From positions 32,001 through 96,000 of the IMG/VR virus record IMGVR_UViG_3300024999_000048: DNA of 64,000 nucleotides. The stretch is one strand, 5' to 3'. A program made the translations under genes and the position numbers. Below the pieces are notes generated by a model. It saw only the letters and a program-made list of their open reading frames with translations, did not search any database and was not told the DNA's origin. Source of the DNA: a virus. Shown in pieces: positions 2,771-40,582 of this stretch; the stretch's first letter is position 1; the number at the start of each line of letters is the position of its first letter.

Positions 2771-5399
2771 ATTGTAAAGGAGAGATTATAAAAATGTATG
2801 AACTAACAAATAAAGACGAGGCATTATTAGATTGTGCTTTAGGTTTAATGAATAATGGAATGGAATGCAGTGATTGTATATTAAATTCATGGGAAGATTG
2901 CGTAAGTAGAATCTTCAAAGATGATGTAAGAGAATTATTAACTAAGATGAAAATAATGGATAAGAAATGGAGAATGCTAAAAATGAATGAAGATTGTTAT
3001 AAAGTATATGACAATAAAGAGATTAGTCAAATTATAGTCGAGATAAAATTTGATGCAAATATAGAAAGATCAGCTTTTGTGCCAGTAGCGAAATATGATT
3101 ATGAGTTTAGTGAAGGTGAAGTATATTTATGTTATGCGGAAGAACGTAAATTTTATAAGAAATATAATACGTGGAAGAAAGCAGTAGAGAGAAAATTCAA
3201 ATTATTTATTCCAGATGATATAAAGGAGGGGGAGGAGATTAAATAAATGACAAAAGACATAAACAAAATCTATCAATCAAAAGGTTATCAGAATCGCAAA
3301 GAATTCATTGAAAGTTTAGTGGAAGATGTTGATATTCCTTTGAAAAATGCATTGGATATTCTAGATAATAAATATTTCGATGAATTGGTTTGGTTGCTGA
3401 GCCATGAGATTGATGAGAAAGTTGAGGAGAGTGAACAATGACTAAAAATATATCAAATTACACAAGAAAACAAAATATTAAAGAGTTAGTTGACAAAATC
3501 ATAACTAAAACATTTGATATAATCCTTTACCCCTTACGTCTAGCATATAAAAAATATGATGGTTCTGATTTACAATCCAGAAGAAAAGTTAAGAAAGCCT
3601 ATGGTAAATTGATAAATAATATTTATAGAATTTTATTAAATGAAGGCTGTGTTTATGTCACTGATTTTTATGTCGGTCAAGAAAATGGTTCTTATGATAT
3701 TATTTCGATAGGTGAGGAATTTGTTTTGCTACATCATACAAAGAAAACTGCAAAGGTTATTTTTGATGAGATAGAAGATATTTTAAGAGGTGATGAAAGT
3801 TTAGTAGTTGATGATTATAGTGTTGGTGATTTGTTTAAGTATGGCTATTTTAAGGAAGATGGTAGAGTTATTAAGGCAAGTATGAAAATTTTTATATAAG
3901 GAGGAGATGTAAATAAATGTTAGAGTTTTATAAAATTAAGAGTCCATTTGATGGAGATGAACAATATAGTTCTGGCCTCAGAAATGGATATATCCACAAA
4001 TCCAAGAAAGGTAAAACATGGAATTCTATTGGTCATGTAAAAAGTCATTTGTCTATGACTCAGAGATTTGATAGTAAAGCATTTGAATTGTTTTATGATT
4101 CATGGTTGATTGTAAGAATCACATTGGAAGGAATGGAGGATTTAGGAACTGTCAAGGAGTTTAGAGAAAAGAATGGATGTTGGATGGGGTAAAATTGTGA
4201 AATATTTTACATTAATTTTATAGGCTGAAATAGGAGTGATATTTTGAGTTACACCTACAACGAGAAAGAAATAAAAACTAAAGAAGATGCAATTAATATT
4301 TTAGAAGAAATTAGAGCATATCAAGAATTAGAAGGATTTCCATTTGATTTTGGTAATGGATTAATTCAAAACGATTTGTCTTATGGTACAGAACATGTTT
4401 ATTGGAAAATGGATGCTCAAGTTTTAGAGGATATAATTGAAGATTGGGAAGAAGATATTGAATGGGCAAACTGGTTAAAATCTCAATCAAAGAAGAAATA
4501 TAAGAAACAAAAACTAAACAGGTATTATAGAAAAACAATTGATAAGAGAAAATTAATCAAATTATCTAAAACTTCATGGTGGATAGTATATTACAATGAA
4601 AAAGAAAACAGATATATTCGATGCTATTATAGTGGTAGGAAAAGTTATGCAAAATGGTGTTCTGATAAAACGGTAAGGAATAGCAATGATTTTTCGTTAA
4701 TAGGAGCTGGATATAGGAAATGTTTTAATTATTGGTATACTGTGTTTTAAGAGAATAATCAAAATAAAATGTATGATTTATTCTATGTTAAGGAGGTGAA
4801 AACAATGAAACAAACATTAGGTAATTTATTAGATAATATAACTAAAATACTTTATGAACATAATTCAGAAATAATGTTATTAAACGACAATATTCCAGAA
4901 GATGAATATGATGTAGAAGCTTTAAATATTGTATTAAAGATTTTTGAATGTGACAATGCTACAGAGGTTAAAAATATTGTTACTGATACATTTGTTGAAT
5001 ATTTTGGTGAAGGTGCTGTAACAAGAGAACAGGATTATACTAATATTGCAAAAGAAATTTGGATCTTGTGGGAAGATTATATTAATTATAATATGAGCAA
5101 GTAAAAATAAGAGAAAAGAGGAAATAAAATGAGTAATGGTTGGATTAAAAATTTATCATCTGAAGATTTCTATTTTATTCAATTTAACAATTATCTAGGT
5201 TGGGATAAAATAAATGAAAAAACTCCTTATTATGTTTTATTAGAAACTATAAAAGGAAAAAATAAATCATCTCAGGATATAGGAGTTAAATTTGATGATA
5301 TTTCACATGGTAATTTCTATTGGAAAGGGTAATTGGATGGATGATTTTGAAGAGTTTAGGATTGAATGTGATAATAAGAGAAACGGGAGGGATAAATAA

Positions 5400-32380: not shown

Positions 32381-32797
32381 GTGATAATTATTATGCAAGT
32401 AGTAAATAAAGTTCAACAATCGCAACAGTTGGTTAGAGGTGGGATATACCTAGTTGATCTAGGTGAAGGAAGAGGATCTTTGCAAGGAAAGGTTCGTCCA
32501 TGTGTGTTAATTTCGAACCGAATGGCTAATATCCACAGTTCAGTTTTGCATATATGTCCAGTGAGTTCAATTACTACTAAGTCAAAATTACCGACGCATA
32601 TTGGATTGAGCAAAAATAATTCTGGATTATTAAGGGATAGTATTGTACTCTGCGAACAAACACAACTGGTTACGAAGGATTCAATAGGTCGCATGGTTGG
32701 CCTTTGTTTGGAGGAAGATTTAATGAGAATTAATAGAGGAATTGCTATACAGTTCGGATTATCTGAAGTTAGAAATAATGTTGCTTATGCAAATTAA
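32381..32797 (+). CDS. mazF: PemK/MazF-family endoribonuclease (no adjacent MazE)
   Basis: RGGIYLVDL, GSLQGKVRPCVLISN, KLPTHI, DSIVLCEQ. Confidence 0.9.
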   Translation: MIIIMQVVNKVQQSQQLVRGGIYLVDLGEGRGSLQGKVRPCVLISNRMANIHSSVLHICPVSSITTKSKLPTHIGLSKNNSGLLRDSIVLCEQTQLVTKDSIGRMVGLCLEEDLMRINRGIAIQFGLSEVRNNVAYAN

Positions 32798-32816
32798 GAA
32801 GGAGAGATATAATTAA

Positions 32817-33719
32817 TTGAAAGAGTTTAAAGATTTAATTGGTCAAACGTTTAATAGATGGACTGTAATTGGCATATCTGATAAAACAAATAAACATTAT
32901 GATAGATATTGGTTATGTCAATGCAGTTGTGAAAATAAAACAATAAGAGAAGTTAGTGAACTTAGTTTGATAAAAGAGAGAAGTAAGAGTTGTGGATGTT
33001 ATTCAAGTGAAGTAACGACTAAAATGAATAAAGATAGATCAATCAGAGATAAATATCCACATTACAAAAGAATATATAGTGTTTACGATGGAATGAGAAA
33101 GAGATGCTATAATGAAAACAACGACAATTATAAATACTATGGTGCGAAAGGAGTTATTATATGTAAAGAGTGGTTAAGTGATTTTATGAAGTTTTATCAT
33201 TGGTCAATAGAGAATGGATATAGTCCTGAATTGACTATAGACAGAATAGAAACACACGGTATATATGAACCAGATAATTGCAGATGGGCGACTCAAGAAG
33301 TTCAAGATTATAATAAAAGAAATACAGTATATCTTGAAATTGATGGAGAATCGAAAACTGTATTAGATTGGGAGAAGATATCAGGATTATCTTATTCTGT
33401 TCTTTGGCAAAGATATAAAATATTTGGTTTTAGAACAAAAGAAGAAATGTTTAAACCTGTTAGACAAGTTACTAAGATAATACATAATGGCATAGAAAAA
33501 ACATTAAGACAATTACATGAAGAGACAGGGTTAGGAATAGCTATTTTAGAGTGGAGAAATAAACAAGGATTAAAAGATGATGAATTAATAAAACCAGCAA
33601 ATAGATGGGCAGGACATGTAAAATCTACAGAAAAAAGAATTAGAAAGAAAAAGACAAAAAATGTAATAGATATACAAAACACAATAGATATAAGAGAAGA
33701 GGTGTTAACCATTGGTTGA
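32817..33719 (+). CDS. HNH-type homing endonuclease
   Basis: WLCQCSC...SKSCGC; MRKRCY, YYGAKGVIICKEW, LTIDRI, YEPDNCRWAT. Confidence 0.85.
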   Translation: MKEFKDLIGQTFNRWTVIGISDKTNKHYDRYWLCQCSCENKTIREVSELSLIKERSKSCGCYSSEVTTKMNKDRSIRDKYPHYKRIYSVYDGMRKRCYNENNDNYKYYGAKGVIICKEWLSDFMKFYHWSIENGYSPELTIDRIETHGIYEPDNCRWATQEVQDYNKRNTVYLEIDGESKTVLDWEKISGLSYSVLWQRYKIFGFRTKEEMFKPVRQVTKIIHNGIEKTLRQLHEETGLGIAILEWRNKQGLKDDELIKPANRWAGHVKSTEKRIRKKKTKNVIDIQNTIDIREEVLTIG

Positions 33720-34332
33720 AACCCTCATAGCATCACTGCTATTCTCTAAACTTCATCTTTACATAAAACTAGGCAAACTCCAAATACACAAAGAATCATA
33801 TCTAATAAAACCAATACTAAAACAATGGAGTTTCTATCCAGTAATATTTATGTCGATATTTTATGTCTATCTACAATACACAATAATGAATCAGAATTAC
33901 TATTTTCTTCAATATCAACATATAATAAAAAATGCTATATTAGGATCATATATGGTTCTAGGACTTGATGTTCTATTAAGGTATGAGAAGTATAAAGAGT
34001 ATATTATTGCATGTTGTAGTCTCTTGTGTGGCTTTACATTGAATTATATTGTAATGCATTTTAATCAGGGGAAGATGCCGATTTTTCCCGATATCTCTTA
34101 TTCAACTGGTTACACACAATATAATGTGATTATGAATGCTTCTAAGTTTAGCGATTTTCATGTTTTAGGTGATCACACAACAAGATTGATATTTTTATCA
34201 GATATATTCGATATAGGAGGAAGTATTTGGTCTCCTGGAGATGTGCTTTGTAGATTATTTGCTTTTATAATCGTCTACTTTTCGGTTAAAGAAATTAGCA
34301 AAATACATATGAATAAAATAGAGAATCAATAA
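33712..34332 (+). CDS. DUF5317-family membrane protein
   Basis: GFTLNYIVMHFNQGKMPI and LIFLSDIF...SPGDVL match the family's G..N....NGG.MP / L.D / S.GD motifs. Confidence 0.7.
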   Translation: MVETLIASLLFSKLHLYIKLGKLQIHKESYLIKPILKQWSFYPVIFMSIFYVYLQYTIMNQNYYFLQYQHIIKNAILGSYMVLGLDVLLRYEKYKEYIIACCSLLCGFTLNYIVMHFNQGKMPIFPDISYSTGYTQYNVIMNASKFSDFHVLGDHTTRLIFLSDIFDIGGSIWSPGDVLCRLFAFIIVYFSVKEISKIHMNKIENQ

Positions 34333-34344
34333 ATAAAATAATAC

Positions 34345-34373
34345 TTGCGTTACGCCTTGTCTTATGGTATAGT
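34345..34373 (+). promoter_or_regulatory. sigmaA-type promoter upstream of membrane protein-agrD
   Basis: TTGCGT-17bp-TATAGT with TG extension. Confidence 0.5.
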
Positions 34374-34389
34374 TATTACAGGTTAAGAA

Positions 34390-35229
34390 ATGGATAAGAA
34401 AGAGGTAATACATATGCAAGGTGTAACAAATGCTTTATTAAACACAATTTTAGTTAGTATACCGGAGGAAGCTTTTATTGTGATTATGACATTGGTTTTT
34501 CTAAAACGATTTGATATGTTGGACATACGAATGTGGAAACACAGTTTAAAATGGGTTATGGTTCCAACAATTCCTGTGGCAATGGTAATAAATGTGTTTA
34601 GATACATAATAATCATACCAAAACCAACAATGTCTTTAATTGCTTTTATATTAATGAATGTACTAATCTTATATGTGGTTATAAAGAACAGTTATAGTAT
34701 TGATAAAAAATTAATTTTTAAAACAATAATTTTTACAGTTTTGAGTTTTATTATTGTTGGATTAATTGAATTGTTATATTATCCTCTTTCCCTTTCATTG
34801 CTACATAAGGAAATGAGTTTTTTTGATAATAAAATTATATACAATATAATAATATCACTTCCTGCAAGAATTATTGAAATATGTATTTTGACGTTTGTAG
34901 TAATAAAAAAGAACAATACAGTACAGGTAAATTTATTTAATACAATAGTCAAAAATAGATTTTTTACAAATAGTTTCTTAACTATAATTATATCAATAGT
35001 GTCATTGATTATTTATATAGCAAAGTTAATAATTGTTGATAATATCATTATTCATATTAGTATTGTTGATCAGTTGATTTTAACTTCGATTGTAATATCT
35101 GCACCAATAATATTGATCACATGGTTCTTAATGTTTATCAACTATTTGTTAACAAAAGAAAAACAAATACAACAGACTTATGAGAGTCTTGTTATGCAAG
35201 ATGACATAATGCTTGATGTAGAAGATTAA
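34390..35229 (+). CDS. polytopic membrane protein, AgrC-sensor-like but without kinase domains (paralog 1)
   Basis: about 7 hydrophobic segments; SIPEEAFI, LPARI, VNLF shared with 37159..38010; likely start ATG 34414; no H-box or HATPase motifs. Confidence 0.6.
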   Translation: MDKKEVIHMQGVTNALLNTILVSIPEEAFIVIMTLVFLKRFDMLDIRMWKHSLKWVMVPTIPVAMVINVFRYIIIIPKPTMSLIAFILMNVLILYVVIKNSYSIDKKLIFKTIIFTVLSFIIVGLIELLYYPLSLSLLHKEMSFFDNKIIYNIIISLPARIIEICILTFVVIKKNNTVQVNLFNTIVKNRFFTNSFLTIIISIVSLIIYIAKLIIVDNIIIHISIVDQLILTSIVISAPIILITWFLMFINYLLTKEKQIQQTYESLVMQDDIMLDVED

Positions 35230-35249
35230 CGTGAAAGGAGGTGAAATAA

Positions 35250-35366
35250 ATGAAAAAATACGCTATTATCGCTGGAGTAGTTGCCTTGTCTGCTACGATG
35301 TTCTCAAATGTTTTTGCATCATGGTTATTTTCACATCAACCAAAAACTCCTAATTGTATGAAATAA
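35250..35366 (+). CDS. agrD: AgrD-type cyclic autoinducing peptide precursor, 38 aa (absent from ORF track)
   Basis: MKKYAIIAGVVALSATMFSNVFASWLFSHQPKTPNCMK; perfect RBS AAAGGAGGTG; hydrophobic leader + S-WLFS + HQPKTP, like clostridial AgrD C-xxxx-HQP..P; agrB 1 kb downstream. Confidence 0.88.
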   Translation: MKKYAIIAGVVALSATMFSNVFASWLFSHQPKTPNCMK

Positions 35367-35378
35367 TCTCACTCTACA

Positions 35379-35406
35379 TATAGGGAGGGTTTCAGCCTTC
35401 CCTATA
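35379..35406 (+). terminator. hairpin downstream of agrD
   Basis: TATAGGGAGGG-tttcag-CCTTCCCTATA. Confidence 0.65.
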
Positions 35407-35445
35407 ATCATAATATAAATTAATAAGAAATCGCAAATAATTGTG

Positions 35446-35475
35446 TTGACATATTCATACATAGTAGGATATAAT
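35446..35475 (+). promoter_or_regulatory. consensus sigmaA promoter for mazF2-agrB
   Basis: TTGACA-18bp-TATAAT. Confidence 0.7.
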
Positions 35476-35516
35476 TATATTATCACGTAAGGCAAATTAT
35501 AAATATCTTATTAAAT

Positions 35517-36320
35517 ATGAAAAGGATGTGCATTACTATGTTCAACAAATTATTTGCTAAATCAACTACCTCTGAGGAAAACGTCAAAAAGGATTTTAAG
35601 AAATTAGCTAATTATGTACTCCATGCAAAAGGCCAAAATAGAACGATCAATGGATTTGCAGCAGATATGAAAACCGATTCTGAATACTTAACTCTTATTG
35701 CAACCGCTAAAATAAATTCATATCCACAAATTGATTTTCTTAAAATAATTGCAAACCATTCTCAAGGAAGGGTGTCTTTGCAAGAATTAACGATGGCATG
35801 TGGGTATTCAAACTACACTAATAATGACATGGAACAGATAAAAAGTATTGAAGTTAGACGAGGGTGGTTCTGCTACGTAAACCTAGGTGATGCTATGGAC
35901 TCAGAATATGGAGGAAATCGAATGTGTTTAATTGTGCAAAACGACGTAGGAAACCATTTCTCATCGACCTCAATTATTTTACCTCTCACCAGCAGACGAA
36001 AAACTCAACTCCCCACGCACGTTCAAGTCGGAATAAAAAATTGCGGCCTACCACAAGAATCAATTGTTAGTTGTGAGCAAATTCGTTGTGTAAGTAAACG
36101 GAGATTAATTCAAAGGGGAATAGTTCAGAAGGTATCTGAATGTCCTCCAGATGTAATGTTAAAGGTAGAGGTGGCTTTACTCAAGGCGCAAGGAGTTATA
36201 CATCTTAAAATGAATGAACAGGAAGCTATTCAACACTTAATGAACATGAATACCCAGAAAACATTTCAGTATCAAAATAATTATGCAAGTGCAGGACAGC
36301 AGGTAGCCTATGCACGATAA
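35517..36320 (+). CDS. mazF: MazF/PemK-family RNase with an N-terminal XRE/HTH-like domain
   Basis: C-term RRGWFCYVNL, DSEYGGNRMCLIVQNDVGN, LPLTS, LPTHV, CEQIRCVSKRRL; N-term RTINGFAADMKTDSEYLTLI...ELTMACGY helical XRE-like; likely start ATG 35538. Confidence 0.8.
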   Translation: MKRMCITMFNKLFAKSTTSEENVKKDFKKLANYVLHAKGQNRTINGFAADMKTDSEYLTLIATAKINSYPQIDFLKIIANHSQGRVSLQELTMACGYSNYTNNDMEQIKSIEVRRGWFCYVNLGDAMDSEYGGNRMCLIVQNDVGNHFSSTSIILPLTSRRKTQLPTHVQVGIKNCGLPQESIVSCEQIRCVSKRRLIQRGIVQKVSECPPDVMLKVEVALLKAQGVIHLKMNEQEAIQHLMNMNTQKTFQYQNNYASAGQQVAYAR

Positions 36321-36344
36321 AAGAAAGGAAGATTAAATAATTTA

Positions 36345-36986
36345 ATGAGTTTTATTGAATTTGTATCAAATCGTTCAGCTAAATGGTTAGCTAAAAATTA
36401 CCCGAACAATGGCAAATATCCAACTGTAGAGGATCAAATAGAAGTTTTCACATATGGTTTTATGGTTATATGGGGTGCTATATTAAAGGGATTCATAATG
36501 GTATCACTAGCATCTATTTTCGGAGTAATACTTCCTGCTATGATTATCACATTAACCTTCAGTAGTTTAAGAATCATAGCAGGAGGATATCATTTCGGTG
36601 AATATACAAAATGCATCACGTTTTCTACCATTCAATTCATAGGATCAGCATTAATAGTCAAGCACACACTTCAATATTGGTCACACCTAGACATACAAGG
36701 ATTATTTCTATTTTGTTGGGCAATGGGATTATATATAAATTTTCGATATATTCCCAAAGACACACCAAACAAACTGATTACAGAACCATTAGAAAGAGCA
36801 AAGTTTAAAAAATGGTCATTATTATACTTAATTTCATGGGTAACAATGATGACCATTTTATTATTCTTCAATCTAAAAATAATTGTTATTGCAAGTTGTT
36901 TCGGATTATTATTAGAACTTTTCTCGATAAGCAAGGTTGGTTATGGTATATATTCTCTTGTAGATGGTATTAGTATACATAAATAA
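36345..36986 (+). CDS. agrB: accessory gene regulator B (peptide-cyclising membrane endopeptidase)
   Basis: YGF, LRIIAGGYH...C (catalytic His/Cys), PKDTPNK; multiple TM helices. Confidence 0.92.
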   Translation: MSFIEFVSNRSAKWLAKNYPNNGKYPTVEDQIEVFTYGFMVIWGAILKGFIMVSLASIFGVILPAMIITLTFSSLRIIAGGYHFGEYTKCITFSTIQFIGSALIVKHTLQYWSHLDIQGLFLFCWAMGLYINFRYIPKDTPNKLITEPLERAKFKKWSLLYLISWVTMMTILLFFNLKIIVIASCFGLLLELFSISKVGYGIYSLVDGISIHK

Positions 36987-37158
36987 AATCTCACAAACCT
37001 CACAACATCCCATCTTATCCCATAATTGCAATACTTTATTCAATTTAATTTCCCAACATTTATGATATATTTACAGCAATAAGTAATAGCACATAATAAT
37101 TACACCCTTACTCAAAACAAACCAAAAACCTAATAATAGAGAAGGAAGGAAACCCTAT

Positions 37159-38010
37159 ATGCAATCTATTACTAATGCTGTATTAAACCTACTATTCGTT
37201 TCCATCCCAGAAGAAGCATTTATTGCAATCATAACTCTAACATTCCTAAATAAACTTGACAACTTATTCGACATCTATATGTGGAAGAAAAATCTAAAAT
37301 GGCTTATGATAGCAACATTGCCCGCATCAATATTAGTTTGTGTTTTGCGATTTATGTTATTAGTTCCCCAAATTATTGTAATAAAATCGGTAATGGCACT
37401 CATGATCACATCAATGATATACATAGTAGTAAAAAACTCTGACAAAATAACTATTCTTTTAATATTTAAAACAGCAATGTTCACATTAGCAGGTTTTGTA
37501 ATTACAGGAATATTGGAATATGCATATTGTCCAATAATATTTTCTCTATTACATAAACCTCAAGAATTCTTTAATAATGTTTTCCTCTATAATTTTCTAT
37601 TAGGATTACCCGCTAGAGTCCTCTATACTTGTGTTGTTGTTTTTATTATAATGAAGAAAAATGGCAAAGTTAAAGTTAATTTATTTGATATTTTAATTAA
37701 AAGCAAATTATTTATTGGCAGTTTTGTTGTTACAATATTGTCTGTAGTTTCATTAATTGTTTATATTGCTAAATTGGTAAAAAATGAAAGTATTTTATTT
37801 AGTTTCCAATTCATTGACCAATTTATCATTATTGTAATAATCACATCTGTTCCAACTATTTTAATTACTTTGTTATTAGTGGTTATTAATTATTTAATAT
37901 CTGGTGAGAGGAAGAATCAGCAAATGTATGAGAATATTGGCAATGAGGATGGTAAGAACAACGGCAACATTAATAATGAGGAAGATATTTATGACAACTA
38001 TTATGAATAG
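37159..38010 (+). CDS. polytopic membrane protein, AgrC-sensor-like but without kinase domains (paralog 2)
   Basis: MQSITNAVLNLLFVSIPEEAFI aligns with paralog 1 throughout; short acidic/Asn-rich C-tail, no kinase motifs. Confidence 0.6.
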   Translation: MQSITNAVLNLLFVSIPEEAFIAIITLTFLNKLDNLFDIYMWKKNLKWLMIATLPASILVCVLRFMLLVPQIIVIKSVMALMITSMIYIVVKNSDKITILLIFKTAMFTLAGFVITGILEYAYCPIIFSLLHKPQEFFNNVFLYNFLLGLPARVLYTCVVVFIIMKKNGKVKVNLFDILIKSKLFIGSFVVTILSVVSLIVYIAKLVKNESILFSFQFIDQFIIIVIITSVPTILITLLLVVINYLISGERKNQQMYENIGNEDGKNNGNINNEEDIYDNYYE

Positions 38011-38061
38011 GGTGATTCTGTACACCTCCTATTCTATTCACAACTATAAATAAATAACCAT

Positions 38062-38091
38062 TTGACAAATCTCAATGAACAATGTTATAAT
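38062..38091 (+). promoter_or_regulatory. consensus sigmaA promoter for the yopQ/yopR-like pair
   Basis: TTGACA-18bp-TG-N-TATAAT; a second candidate TTGCAT-17bp-TATAAT starts at 38129. Confidence 0.7.
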
Positions 38092-38192
38092 CATAGAGAT
38101 AAATAATTAAAGTAATTAAGCATCAACCTTGCATATCGGCATATATTATTATATAATGGTATCAATACATAGCAACTTAATTTGTTGCTGAT

Positions 38193-39566
38193 ATGTCAAA
38201 GGAGGAAAATAATATGAAAAAAGATCGTCAAGTTCTTGAGGATGTTCTTGATTTAGTAATTGAGGACTATTCTAATGACAACAAGGTTATGGAACATGTT
38301 ATAGTTAAATTATTAGAAAGAGGTATCCCAAGAGGACTTACAACTGGTCTGTTTACCAAAGCTACGCCATTGGTTTATGCTTCAGAAACCGAATTGTGTT
38401 TATTTACAAAGTACCTCTTTGGATATACTCACAGACCAGAAATAAATCCAGAAGAATTTTTTACAGAAATAGACTTATCTTTAGCAGAATCGTATCAAAA
38501 ACTAGAAAAGGACAAAGTTAAATATATTTTGTTGCATAATGTTGATCAACTTACTCCAACTCAATTTTTATGTACAAAAGAGACTTATCAAAATAATAGT
38601 GTTTATATGGGGAATGGATTATTAACTTATAATCCAAATACTCAAAGACAACTTCTGAAACGAAGAAGTGGAGACAAAATCATTGAATCAATTAATGTTG
38701 GTGGGAAAAAAGTTACAGAAATTACTTCATCAATGTTAGACAATACATTTTGCCCAAATGCAATCATATGGAACATTAGAAAGATAAACGGACAAGAGAA
38801 GTTTAAATACGATGCAAAATCTAGAACCTTATTAATTGAACCTGACAATATCACAACTTTTGTGGACATAATCGATGGTGCAAATCGTACTTGTGGGATG
38901 ATTAAGGTTGTTGAACTTAAACCTGAAATTGATAGAATTACTTCGATATATATTCATCATGTCACGGAAGAACGAGCGAATCAAATTATAAAACAAGAAA
39001 GTTTAGCTGCTCCTATTCAGACAGAATGGGTTGATTTTAAAGATACCGCAAATCCAAATATGGAAGTTGCTAAAGGTATTAATGATCGTCAAAGAGAAAA
39101 TGAAATGTTTAATCGAGTAGGGTTAGATTCCAAGGAATTGAAATTAGAAAACAAACTGGTTATGTTTGATACATTATCAAAAGCTATTGAATTTGTTTAT
39201 GATCTTAAAGAAAAACCTGTTATTAGACAAAGAGAAGTAATTGATGATTTGGTAGAATTATTTAATAATGTCATTGGACTTAATTTTTCAAAATTTAATA
39301 CAGAATTATCAGATGCCAGAGAAAAAACTTATATGGCACATGACAACATGTTTATTGGGTATATTATATTGGGAGATTTGTTAAGGCAGAAATATGAAAC
39401 AGAATGGAAATCTGAGTTGGTGAAGGTATTAAAGTCTTTAGATTTTGATAAGTCTAATAAAATTTGGAAGAAAATTGGTATTGAAAACAATGTAAATTTA
39501 TCTACTTTTAAAAAGATTTCAGAGTATTTTAAAGATATTGTCTCTGAAAAGGAGGTTGCTGTATAA
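38193..39566 (+). CDS. YopQ-like protein with DndB/ParB-like (DGQHR-type) domain
   Basis: YNPNTQR, IIDGANRT (DGxxR variant); size and position directly before a YopR-like gene as in SPbeta. Confidence 0.65.
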   Translation: MSKEENNMKKDRQVLEDVLDLVIEDYSNDNKVMEHVIVKLLERGIPRGLTTGLFTKATPLVYASETELCLFTKYLFGYTHRPEINPEEFFTEIDLSLAESYQKLEKDKVKYILLHNVDQLTPTQFLCTKETYQNNSVYMGNGLLTYNPNTQRQLLKRRSGDKIIESINVGGKKVTEITSSMLDNTFCPNAIIWNIRKINGQEKFKYDAKSRTLLIEPDNITTFVDIIDGANRTCGMIKVVELKPEIDRITSIYIHHVTEERANQIIKQESLAAPIQTEWVDFKDTANPNMEVAKGINDRQRENEMFNRVGLDSKELKLENKLVMFDTLSKAIEFVYDLKEKPVIRQREVIDDLVELFNNVIGLNFSKFNTELSDAREKTYMAHDNMFIGYIILGDLLRQKYETEWKSELVKVLKSLDFDKSNKIWKKIGIENNVNLSTFKKISEYFKDIVSEKEVAV

Positions 39567-40582
39567 TGTCGTTCACTATCGAAAGAACTTTATTCAATGA
39601 AGATCAAAAGAATCGTTTTCTTAATGAAAAATATCCAAATGAAAGCACTCGAACGACTAATACTTCTATCTTAAGAAGTGTAGGTAGATTTGAAAATGAT
39701 AAAAACAAAGATTTGTGTAAATTTAGTTATGAAGAAGTAAAAGAATTATTGATTGGTATGAAAAAGAAATCTGTGAAATCATTGGGTGTTGCTTATACAA
39801 TTATTATGCAGTATCTTGATTGGTGTTTATTCAACAATTACAGTTCAATGAATGTTTTGAAGTTGGTTGATAAAAAAGAAGACCTTCCAAAATATGTTCA
39901 TCAAGTAGCTCAGAAAAATTCTTATATCTCTAGAGATCAAATGTATTCTTACTGTGACCGGCTCTATAATTATGCCGACAAAGCAATGATTGCATTATTA
40001 TTTGAAAATGTTAGAGGAAGAACAGAAAAAGGTCATTCGTATGAAGAAATGAGAAATCTAAAAATTAATGATATATTCCCTGAAACAAATACAATTGCCA
40101 TAACTAGGGATGTAGATGATAATGTAAAGAATGACGCAGAGACTCCAAACCCAAGAACAATTAGTGTAGACCCAAGAACTATGGATATTCTCGTTGCAGC
40201 AGCCATAGAAGACACCTATCATCGTAGTAATGGTGAAGCGGAAGGTAGATTCGCTATATCTCAAACCAAAGACACTCCCTACCTTCTAAGAACGCTGGAC
40301 AGGAAGAGTAGCGCTGGAGATGATAGAATTACGGTAGGAAATATTAGTGCAAGATTTAAAAATTTCCGTCAATATACTGGCATCAAATTTCTAAATCCAA
40401 CCCTAGTATTTCAAAGTGGAATGTTTGACCGATGTTTTAAAGAGGAAGCAGATATTGGCGAGTTGAGTTCAGATAATTTTCGATATATACTCAGTGATTT
40501 AGAATTGGATGAAAGGGGTTGGCAAGGATTAAAAGAAACTTATGAAAGTTACAAACAAATACAGTCTACAGTCCCTAAATAA
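39566..40582 (+). CDS. YopR/MrpR-like tyrosine-recombinase-fold repressor
   Basis: LFNEDQKNRFL...FENDKNKDLCKFS N-terminus; ALLFENVRG...EMRNLKINDI; LNPTLVFQSGM lacks the canonical HxxR catalytic motif. Confidence 0.75.
   Translation: MSFTIERTLFNEDQKNRFLNEKYPNESTRTTNTSILRSVGRFENDKNKDLCKFSYEEVKELLIGMKKKSVKSLGVAYTIIMQYLDWCLFNNYSSMNVLKLVDKKEDLPKYVHQVAQKNSYISRDQMYSYCDRLYNYADKAMIALLFENVRGRTEKGHSYEEMRNLKINDIFPETNTIAITRDVDDNVKNDAETPNPRTISVDPRTMDILVAAAIEDTYHRSNGEAEGRFAISQTKDTPYLLRTLDRKSSAGDDRITVGNISARFKNFRQYTGIKFLNPTLVFQSGMFDRCFKEEADIGELSSDNFRYILSDLELDERGWQGLKETYESYKQIQSTVPK

Follow-up and report, generated by a model that had tools for sequence, protein, structure and literature searches.

The stretch of DNA analysed here, referred to as the window, comprises bases 32001-96000 (64,000 nucleotides) of the 121,089-bp linear IMG/VR record IMGVR_UViG_3300024999_000048, which has about 28% G+C and is 72% complete according to CheckV. 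Ten genes, all on the + strand, lie between window positions 32381 and 40582. They include agrD and agrB, the gene of a transmembrane (TM) protein without a named family, and a fusion of a helix-turn-helix (HTH) domain to a MazF endoribonuclease, followed directly by homologs of the SPbeta genes yopQ and yopR. We propose, with confidence evenly divided for and against, that this large SPbeta-like clostridial phage carries an Agr-type peptide communication module which works without AgrC and AgrA and likely biases the choice between lysis and lysogeny. The genes and the elements between them, in window coordinates, are the following.

32381..32797, + strand: mazF1, a stand-alone MazF/PemK endoribonuclease with no adjacent antitoxin (PemK_toxin 1.8e-20)
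32817..33719, + strand: HNH homing-type endonuclease, a variable insertion (phrog_374 2.6e-67)
33712..34332, + strand: DUF5317 polytopic membrane protein (PF17248 6.3e-19)
34390..35229, + strand: TM1, a predicted 7-TM protein of 279 aa, with no Pfam, PHROG or NCBIfam family
35250..35366, + strand: agrD, a 38-aa precursor (TIGR04223 22.8 bits, cut-off 19)
35380..35405, + strand: hairpin after agrD, 10-bp stem and 6-nt loop, no U-tract, kept in 12 loci
35446..35475, + strand: sigma-70-type consensus promoter TTGACA-18-TATAAT, for HTH::mazF2-agrB (12/12 match)
35517..36320, + strand: HTH::mazF2 fusion, 267 aa (PemK 2.3e-21 at aa 115-222)
36345..36986, + strand: agrB, membrane cysteine peptidase/cyclase family (PF04647 7.2e-34)
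37159..38010, + strand: TM2, a TM1 paralog (45% identity to TM1 over 265 aa, E 2e-80)
38062..38091, + strand: consensus promoter TTGACA-18-TGnTATAAT, for yopQ-yopR (12/12 match plus TG extension)
38193..39566, + strand: yopQ homolog, DndB-like (phrog_5732 6e-61; DndB 5.8e-9)
39566..40582, + strand: yopR/MrpR homolog (MrpR_N_CB 4.1e-18 and MrpR_C_cat 2.4e-7, both above cut-off; phrog_5830 7.8e-54)

The gene order and families given in the original prediction were confirmed, all ten genes being found at its coordinates and their families being called with Pfam, PHROGs and NCBIfam; profile-profile comparisons were made with hhalign. The starts of two ORFs (open reading frames) were re-judged by family alignments and gene callers, the probable start of TM1 being M9 (position 34414) and that of HTH::mazF2 being M8 (position 35538). 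A megablast search with the 8.2-kb region found nothing among 50,697 phage records.

Relatives of the locus were collected by two scans of IMG/VR, one seeded with the TM family (14 viral loci) and a second, independent one seeded with a YopQ profile (42 viral loci). The two scans share many contigs, and removal of duplicates left 24 distinct modules. The GTDB genomes, scanned with the TM family as seed, gave 28 further loci, two of which (L018 and L019) are phage-type modules with yopQ/yopR and were set apart from the 26 chromosomal ones. The order mazF1..DUF5317-TM1-agrD-HTH::mazF2-agrB-(TM2)-yopQ-yopR was retained in 14 of 14 TM-seeded viral loci with minor exceptions: L013 is without DUF5317, agrB stands ahead of DUF5317 in L009 and L010, and agrD of L010 was seen only by ORF listing. 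The module lies directly upstream of yopQ-yopR, and co-oriented with them, in 26 of the 42 yopQ-seeded loci. The remaining ones comprise eight with only a MazF of the phage c-st type within about 450 nt of yopQ, two with mazF further upstream, one (L061) with AimR and yopP homologs, and five that matched no model, one of them nearly without upstream DNA. The check proposed in the original prediction, whether agrB, agrD, mazF, yopQ/yopR and the TM family occur together and in synteny, was thus strongly positive in both scans, and the gene order holds although the proteins share just 25-80% identity. The HNH gene, which had been listed among the module genes, is absent from most relatives or placed elsewhere in them, and is no longer counted as a member.

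The pairwise identities of TM1, AgrD, HTH::MazF2 and AgrB correlate mutually (Spearman 0.50-0.81), whereas those of the same proteins do not follow YopQ/YopR (Spearman 0.00-0.12). Since the core co-varies internally but not with the repressor genes, TM1-agrD-HTH::mazF2-agrB can be regarded as an exchangeable cassette. The sharpest view of its evolution was given by the comparison of L003 with L018, whose DNA is 95-100% identical over 9.8 kb except for one sharply bounded patch of 56-75%, spanning most of TM1 and all of agrD. The proteins encoded outside the patch are nearly unchanged, AgrB, MazF1, YopQ and YopR being 100% identical and HTH::MazF2 97%. Because the two loci diverge only in the patch over both genes, TM1 and agrD were taken as a co-diversifying cognate pair. 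TM1 is usually the most diverged protein across module pairs, as between the window and L012, where identity amounts to 83% for DUF5317, 81% for HTH::MazF2, 92% for AgrD and 41% for TM1. The pairing of TM1 with AgrD is evident from these comparisons, and its most likely explanation is that TM1 acts as the receptor of the peptide.

The AgrD homologs consist of a hydrophobic leader followed by [S/C]-x-x-x-x, [H/Y/N]-Q-P-x-x-P and a short basic tail. A23, Q30, P31 and C36 are invariant in an alignment of 12 phage sequences, and S24 is near-invariant. Clostridial AgrD reads ...A-C-L-W-F-T-H-Q-P-E-E-P, and on this analogy S-W-L-F-S was taken as the five-residue ring predicted in the AgrD of the window, followed by HQPKTPNCMK with the PxxP motif. 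The mature signal is accordingly predicted to be the S-W-L-F-S ring closed as a Ser lactone. The AgrB protein was assigned to PF04647 with 117 bits (cut-off 23); R76, G80, G81, H83 and C90 are invariant in 18 homologs, and H83 and C90 are presumably equivalent to H77 and C84 of Staphylococcus aureus. The window therefore contains both an AgrB with the catalytic His/Cys pair and an AgrD in which the ring residue (Cys/Ser) lies five positions ahead of the cleavage site and the follower carries PxxP. Peptide rings could be parsed from 20 of the 24 modules and all 20 differ, that of the L012 type reading SMFFS, and the AgrD C-termini of the other four differ as well. This pattern suggests one private peptide per phage and matches that of the arbitrium peptides and of the agr specificity groups. 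Hertweck's group showed (PMC8251862) that autoinducing peptides (AIPs) of Ruminiclostridium are able to rearrange into homodetic cyclopeptides if their ring residue is Cys. This route would not be open to a Ser ring.

The TM family was predicted, from hydropathy and K/R distribution over the family alignment, to have seven helices with the N-terminus outside and the C-terminus inside, so that its conserved acidic tail QQTYENLVMQDDIMLDVED, located in TM1 at aa 251-279, is predicted to be cytoplasmic. In a set of 1.84 billion proteins the family amounts, at E<=1e-3, to 226 representative clusters. No kinase-fused form was found among the best 150 of the 226 representatives, all of which have at most 326 aa; none of ten distant members carries a Pfam domain, and the family profile gave no match against the PDB sequences. 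In the ESM Atlas, TM1 matched the cluster to which it belongs, which has no name (0.96; 637 members, 76% viral), and otherwise gave only leads below the threshold. The family was compared by hhalign with ten AgrC-type (HATPase_c_5) kinases from cassette-bearing genomes. The TM alignment of 40 sequences matched them at 91.2% (E 1e-6) and that of 121 sequences at 91.8% (E 7e-7), while the controls (TM against AgrB, TM against DUF5317, AgrB against the kinases and DUF5317 against the kinases) remained at 0.2-0.6%. This weak profile likeness is suggestive of homology between the TM family and the AgrC sensor module and is inconclusive. Helix 1 of TM1 holds an invariant P-E-E. A CPBP/Abi (MroQ-like) protease, for which the comparison standard is P-E-E with an Arg at +5 and a His, was considered for TM1 and rejected, as P-E-E is kept but there is neither the Arg at +5 nor a conserved His. 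Prediction of a complex of two HTH::MazF2 with TM1 yielded a score of 0.01 and a mark of 0.32, which give no verdict either way.

The second TM gene, TM2, is present in 8 of the 24 distinct modules. In the tree, all TM2 proteins group in a single clade (100/100) that arises within phage TM1, with much shorter branches and different, diverged acidic tails; TM2 is an optional, slowly evolving paralog of TM1, and it may serve as a second, non-private sensor or as a modulator.

The HTH::MazF2 protein is laid out as an XRE-like HTH at about aa 20-100, a MazF/EndoA-type RNase domain at aa 109-224 and a tail ending V-A-Y-A-R. Its RNase domain profile matches the Bacillus subtilis EndoA/YdcE structures at 4e-28; of the catalytic residues, the Thr/Ser is present in all 24 modules and the Arg in 23 of them. 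An alignment of 13 MazF1 homologs shows that the catalytic Arg (R39-P40) is conserved there, as is the Ser/Thr that precedes LPTH; which residues are catalytic is assumed from B. subtilis MazF. The HTH domain, which had been proposed in the original prediction, was not called by Pfam in the N-terminus of the fusion; it was supported by profile comparison with XRE proteins, as the HTH::MazF2 hidden Markov model (HMM) matches the XRE-type neighbour of a bacterial TM gene (L020, 214 aa) at positions 23-94 with E 9e-11, and hhalign against the cassette XRE proteins gave 79% (E 1.6e-5). The HTH is thus a putative one, assigned at the level of profiles only. All 29 homologs of the N-terminal domain carry the MazF domain PF02452, and HTH::MazF2 is the candidate effector of the module.

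The C-termini of MazF1 (32780-32797) and HTH::MazF2 (36300-36320) share a motif, ..N-N-V-A-Y-A-(N) and ..Q-Q-V-A-Y-A-(R), respectively, and [V/L]-[A/V]-[Y/F]-A occurs at or near the C-terminus in most MazF1 and MazF2 homologs. One may speculate that it is a degron or a docking motif.

The DUF5317 gene is present in 13 of the 14 TM-seeded loci, and in most phage modules TM1 follows it immediately. The encoded protein has invariant residues at N111, N118, M122-P123, H150, D164, D167 and S174-x-G176-D177, and its profile gave no match against the PDB sequences. It is a candidate peptide maturation factor, and might conceivably be an aspartic peptidase resembling signal peptidase II. One viral locus (L087, 2278-3228) has mazF1 and DUF5317 upstream of yopQ-yopR without TM, agrD, HTH::mazF2 and agrB; this may be what is left of a module after decay, or else reflect a pairing of DUF5317 with MazF1.

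The intergenic elements suggest a division of the module into transcription units. A strong ribosome-binding site precedes agrD, and the hairpin after it lies at the same place in L002-L015, with compensatory changes in the stem across 12 loci. A terminator scan made no call on the hairpin (35380-35405). It could be terminator-like and regulated, a processing site or a stabiliser of the agrD transcript, and it would split the agrD unit from the HTH::mazF2-agrB unit. The promoter before HTH::mazF2 has its TTGACAT and -10 elements conserved across 12 loci, and the units suggested by these signals are [DUF5317-TM1-agrD], the hairpin, the promoter with its 12/12 match, and [HTH::mazF2-agrB]. An inverted repeat, AAGATAT (overlapping the -10 element) ... 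ATATCTT (just 5' of the HTH::mazF2 start), is conserved in L002, L005, L006, L011, L013 and L014, and the window has a one-base variant of it at that site. Its role as an operator, though possible, was dropped, as an exact copy was found nowhere in the window.

The kinase, response regulator and antitoxin expected of agr and MazEF systems were not found in the record. The 121,089-bp record, at its 72% completeness, contains no HATPase_c_5, HATPase_c, LytTR or MazE_antitoxin (PF04014) domain. Five related large phage records with the module were also examined, four of which are 100% complete according to CheckV and two of which have terminal repeats: HATPase_c_5 was found in none of the five, LytTR above cut-off in none, and a MazE-type domain in one, about 10 kb from mazF1. 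The absence of agrA, kinase and mazE noted in the original prediction therefore stands for the record itself, and extends to the five relatives for AgrC and AgrA and to four of them for MazE. The AimR and AimP proteins of SPBc2 and the AimR-like protein of L061 gave no tblastn match in the record at E<=0.01. The large serine recombinase domain PF07508 was not found in it either, which is uninformative for a record that is 72% complete.

The genes downstream of the module are those of an SPbeta-type repressor operon, yopQ (DndB-like) being followed by yopR/MrpR of the integrase-fold master repressor type. The yopQ gene is 24.8% identical to that of SPBc2 (tblastn 6e-17), and tblastn of SPBc2 YopQ and YopR against the record gave 3.5e-21 and 1.5e-12. 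In SPBc2 the aimR-aimP genes share a strand with yopQ-yopR and precede them by about 2.4 kb, which agrees with the supposition that the module sits where SPbeta phages carry arbitrium. A relative supplies the second line of agreement: L061, a viral contig of 28% G+C, has upstream of its yopP-yopQ-yopR homologs a gene (4023-5162) whose 379-aa product is homologous to the AimR of SPbeta (23% identity, E 1.3e-21). The AimR homolog in this slot indicates that arbitrium and the agr module share one slot in related phages.

A MazF with a C-terminal extension of about 90 aa is encoded within about 450 nt upstream of yopQ-yopR in c-st-like phages (L017 7183-7845, which is CST027 of Clostridium phage c-st; also L059, L071-L076 and L079). 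A phage MazF beside the repressor operon is therefore a wider theme.

Members of the TM family are encoded by Clostridia and other Bacillota of the GTDB as well, among them R. cellobioparum, R. hungatei and Anaerobacterium chartisolvens. The bacterial TM genes encode 287-339 aa, that of L044 being split in two ORFs. All 26 chromosomal cassettes have an agrD-like ORF after the TM gene (seven by HMM and, for the 19 remaining gaps, 19 by ORF listing), agrB is just upstream of TM in 12 of the 26, and a convergent HTH_3/XRE gene lies downstream in 15 of the 21 neighbours tested. DUF5317 is absent from the bacterial cassettes, which are also without toxin. No kinase or LytTR gene is adjacent to the cassette in six annotated loci, whose flanks are unrelated housekeeping genes. 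As TM-agrD(-agrB)-xre recurs in clostridial chromosomes, the phage module looks like a captured kinase-less agr variant, that is, an (agrB)-TM-agrD-xre cassette whose regulator appears to have been fused to MazF. Eight cassettes have, just upstream of agrB and divergent from it, an ORF for a 132-aa protein with a zinc ribbon and a TM2 domain (L040 7547-7945; also L025, L031, L036, L037, L042, L043 and L044); this may be mere shared synteny of close relatives.

A sequence of events can be proposed on this basis. AgrB, whose family and that of AgrD are clear while the chemistry is presumed, would cyclise and release a five-residue lactone or thiolactone peptide from AgrD. TM1, the cognate membrane partner of AgrD, would most likely bind the peptide outside the cell as a sensor that is akin to the sensor module of AgrC but has no kinase, and would signal by protein-protein contact, probably through its acidic cytoplasmic tail, to the XRE-type HTH::MazF2. 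The latter may then alter gene expression by DNA binding and/or by MazF-type mRNA cleavage, so that lysis versus lysogeny, or induction, would be biased by the density of kin phages or lysogens, each phage using its private peptide. The module would derive from the chromosomal clostridial (agrB)-TM-agrD cassette with its convergent xre gene. A bias of lysis versus lysogeny is, by analogy, the most likely job of the module because of the slot, the AimR homolog in L061, the yopQ-yopR promoter immediately downstream of the module and the parallel with phage phi3T, in which MazF activity, in the absence of AimX, favours lysogeny (PMC10769878).

It is tempting to go one step further and to regard the module as a second, independently evolved phage language, composed of a private cyclic pentapeptide, a kinase-less 7-TM receptor, direct contact, XRE::MazF and the lysis-lysogeny choice, which would also explain sensing at orphan clostridial agrD/agrBD loci. 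In this complete form the proposal is doubtful.

Several observations weigh against the proposed role of the module in signalling and in the lysis-lysogeny choice. The profile likeness to AgrC-type kinases fell to 8% with the phage-only TM alignment, and the two high matches are partial, pairing TM4-loop-TM5 with kinase positions 82-151 over 67-69 columns. The phage TM set has invariant charged residues inside predicted helices (P25-E26, E127, R160 and K212), and membrane-embedded charges of this kind are met more typically in enzymes or transporters than in a hypervariable sensor. A maturation or export protein specific for its precursor would be equally expected to co-diversify with AgrD. 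An adjacent agrB is lacking from 14 of the 26 chromosomal cassettes (L032, L033, L035, L026, L039 and L041 are among them), and for these either AgrB could be encoded elsewhere or the TM protein itself could process the peptide. The cassette-bearing bacterial genomes, and the metagenome-assembled genome with the prophage-like L018, encode 5-12 HATPase_c_5 kinases, and a host kinase could sense the phage peptide. The SPbeta region upstream of yopQ also has accessory genes (superinfection exclusion, a RES-domain protein), so that position alone is no proof of a role in the decision. The c-st-like phages have MazF close to yopQ-yopR and no agr, and MazF and agr need not be one pathway. The pairwise identities of MazF1 follow those of no other module gene (Spearman -0.01 to 0.19), and as judged from these values MazF1 is a constant upstream neighbour outside the co-evolving unit. 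The original claim that the peptide controls the phage MazF RNases is consequently not supported for mazF1, where Spearman is about 0, and is narrowed at most to the fused MazF2. Finally, the sequencing runs listed for the phage are DNA only (groundwater and soil metagenomes), with no RNA run among them.

The strongest alternative, which we consider unlikely, is that TM1, perhaps together with DUF5317, serves to mature or export the peptide by removing its leader or transporting it, a role comparable to that of MroQ/SpsB of S. aureus. A host AgrC-type kinase would then sense the peptide, the phage would manipulate or eavesdrop on host quorum sensing, and the MazFs would be separate accessories. 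The invariant charges within the TM1 helices, a co-diversification with AgrD that suits a substrate-specific enzyme, the adjacency of TM and agrD in 26 of 26 cassettes against 12 of 26 for agrB, and the 5-12 kinases of the host-type genomes all agree with this explanation, and phiCDHM1 shows (PMC3901668) that phages can carry agr genes of host origin. It accords poorly with the TM family having no conserved His or metalloprotease-type motif and a profile likeness to the AgrC-type sensor region rather than to AgrB or DUF5317, and with TM1 being hypervariable while AgrB can remain 100% identical. The XRE regulator, moreover, stands beside the bacterial cassette and is fused into the phage operon, where with TM it makes a self-contained input-output circuit.

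A defence, addiction or superinfection-exclusion island, in which peptide-gated MazF toxins are regulated by the membrane proteins and have no lysis-lysogeny role of their own, is still less probable. In its favour are the two MazF toxins, whose catalytic residues are intact and which have no MazE, the exclusion and toxin-like genes in the SPbeta region upstream of yopQ, the PHROGs class of moron/host takeover for phage MazF and the MazF beside yopQ in agr-less phages. These facts have to be set against the adjacency and co-orientation of the module with the repressor operon in 26 loci, the AimR homolog in the same slot of a relative, the private peptide per phage, which is the arbitrium-like pattern of kin communication, and the ancestral bacterial cassette, in which an XRE regulator is present but a toxin is not. 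That accessory genes without a common function came together by chance is favoured only by the independent variation of mazF1 and the HNH gene. For the core TM1-agrD-HTH::mazF2-agrB this is effectively refuted by a gene order conserved at only 25-80% protein identity, the co-variation of the core genes, the bounded hypervariable patch of TM1 and agrD, the conserved intergenic hairpin and promoter, and the existence of a bacterial counterpart cassette.

If the communication module proposed here is real, phage-phage communication would have evolved more than once, each time from other bacterial components. In the module, moreover, a phage-encoded MazF is linked directly to a signalling cassette, which echoes the MazF dependence of phi3T. 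The bacterial (agrB)-TM-agrD-xre cassette is a candidate answer to the sensing of agr peptides without nearby AgrC/AgrA, and since it is present in culturable Ruminiclostridium and Anaerobacterium strains it is directly testable. The culturable carriers are R. hungatei DSM 14427, R. cellobioparum DSM 1351 and A. chartisolvens DSM 27016.

No description of the TM-family partner, of HTH::MazF in an agr operon or of an agr module at yopQ-yopR was found in the literature, nor any mention of DUF5317. The TM family is nameless and so not searchable by name, and Figure S1/Table S1 of PMC8251862, on four R. cellulolyticum agr loci, could show the TM gene, which bounds this negative. In a 2025 review (PMC11945551), agr homologs of Clostridium and SPbeta-like phages are referred to in general terms only.

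The module can be set beside five known systems. To our knowledge no peptide system other than arbitrium has been established with which phages gauge the number of their kin in choosing lysogeny, and arbitrium is confined to phages of the Bacillus group. The module resembles it in its slot upstream of yopQ-yopR, in a presumably secreted peptide private to each phage and in being a modular cassette exchanged among phages, and there is no sequence relationship between the two. The arbitrium signal is a linear hexapeptide which is imported and bound by a cytoplasmic TPR-HTH receptor, whereas the module has a cyclic peptide presumably made by AgrB, a membrane partner and a phage-encoded MazF fused to the regulator. 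A link to MazF is a further likeness, as seen for phi3T (PMC10769878).

The canonical agr system (agrBDCA of Staphylococcus and clostridia) has in common with the module the His/Cys pair of AgrB, the five-residue ring with Cys/Ser, the PxxP follower, a hypervariable segment covering peptide and membrane partner, and many specificity variants. It differs in that neither AgrC kinase nor AgrA (LytTR) is present in the phage or beside the bacterial cassettes. The partner is here a stand-alone 7-TM protein of 260-340 aa with a short cytoplasmic tail only, the regulator is of the XRE type and fused to MazF in the phages, and the AgrD follower is short and basic.

The nearest phage precedent is the C. 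difficile phage phiCDHM1, whose agr3 locus (agrC-agrB-agrD) does include the AgrC kinase, as had been anticipated; agr cassettes were noted in Paenibacillus phages as well (PMC3901668). Phage phiCDHM1 shares with the present phage agrB and agrD without a response regulator and is otherwise a 54-kb myovirus which has an AgrC kinase (HATPase_c), has its locus near the endolysin gene rather than at a repressor operon, and is without a TM-family protein, HTH::MazF or yopQ/yopR context.

MazEF, as represented by EndoA/YdcE of B. subtilis, shares the MazF fold and the catalytic residues, while the module has no MazE/AbrB-type antitoxin gene, its MazF2 has an N-terminal XRE-like domain, and both its MazFs have the V-A-Y/F-A tail. 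In the LytTR regulatory systems (HdrRM/BrsRM) a polytopic membrane protein controls a small cytoplasmic regulator without phosphotransfer. They belong to other protein families and have no AgrB-made peptide ligand, and the comparison is one of analogy only. The kinds of system involved, agr signalling and phage communication, are thus known; there is a real chance that the kinase-less receptor, if this reading of TM1 holds, represents a new signalling mechanism.

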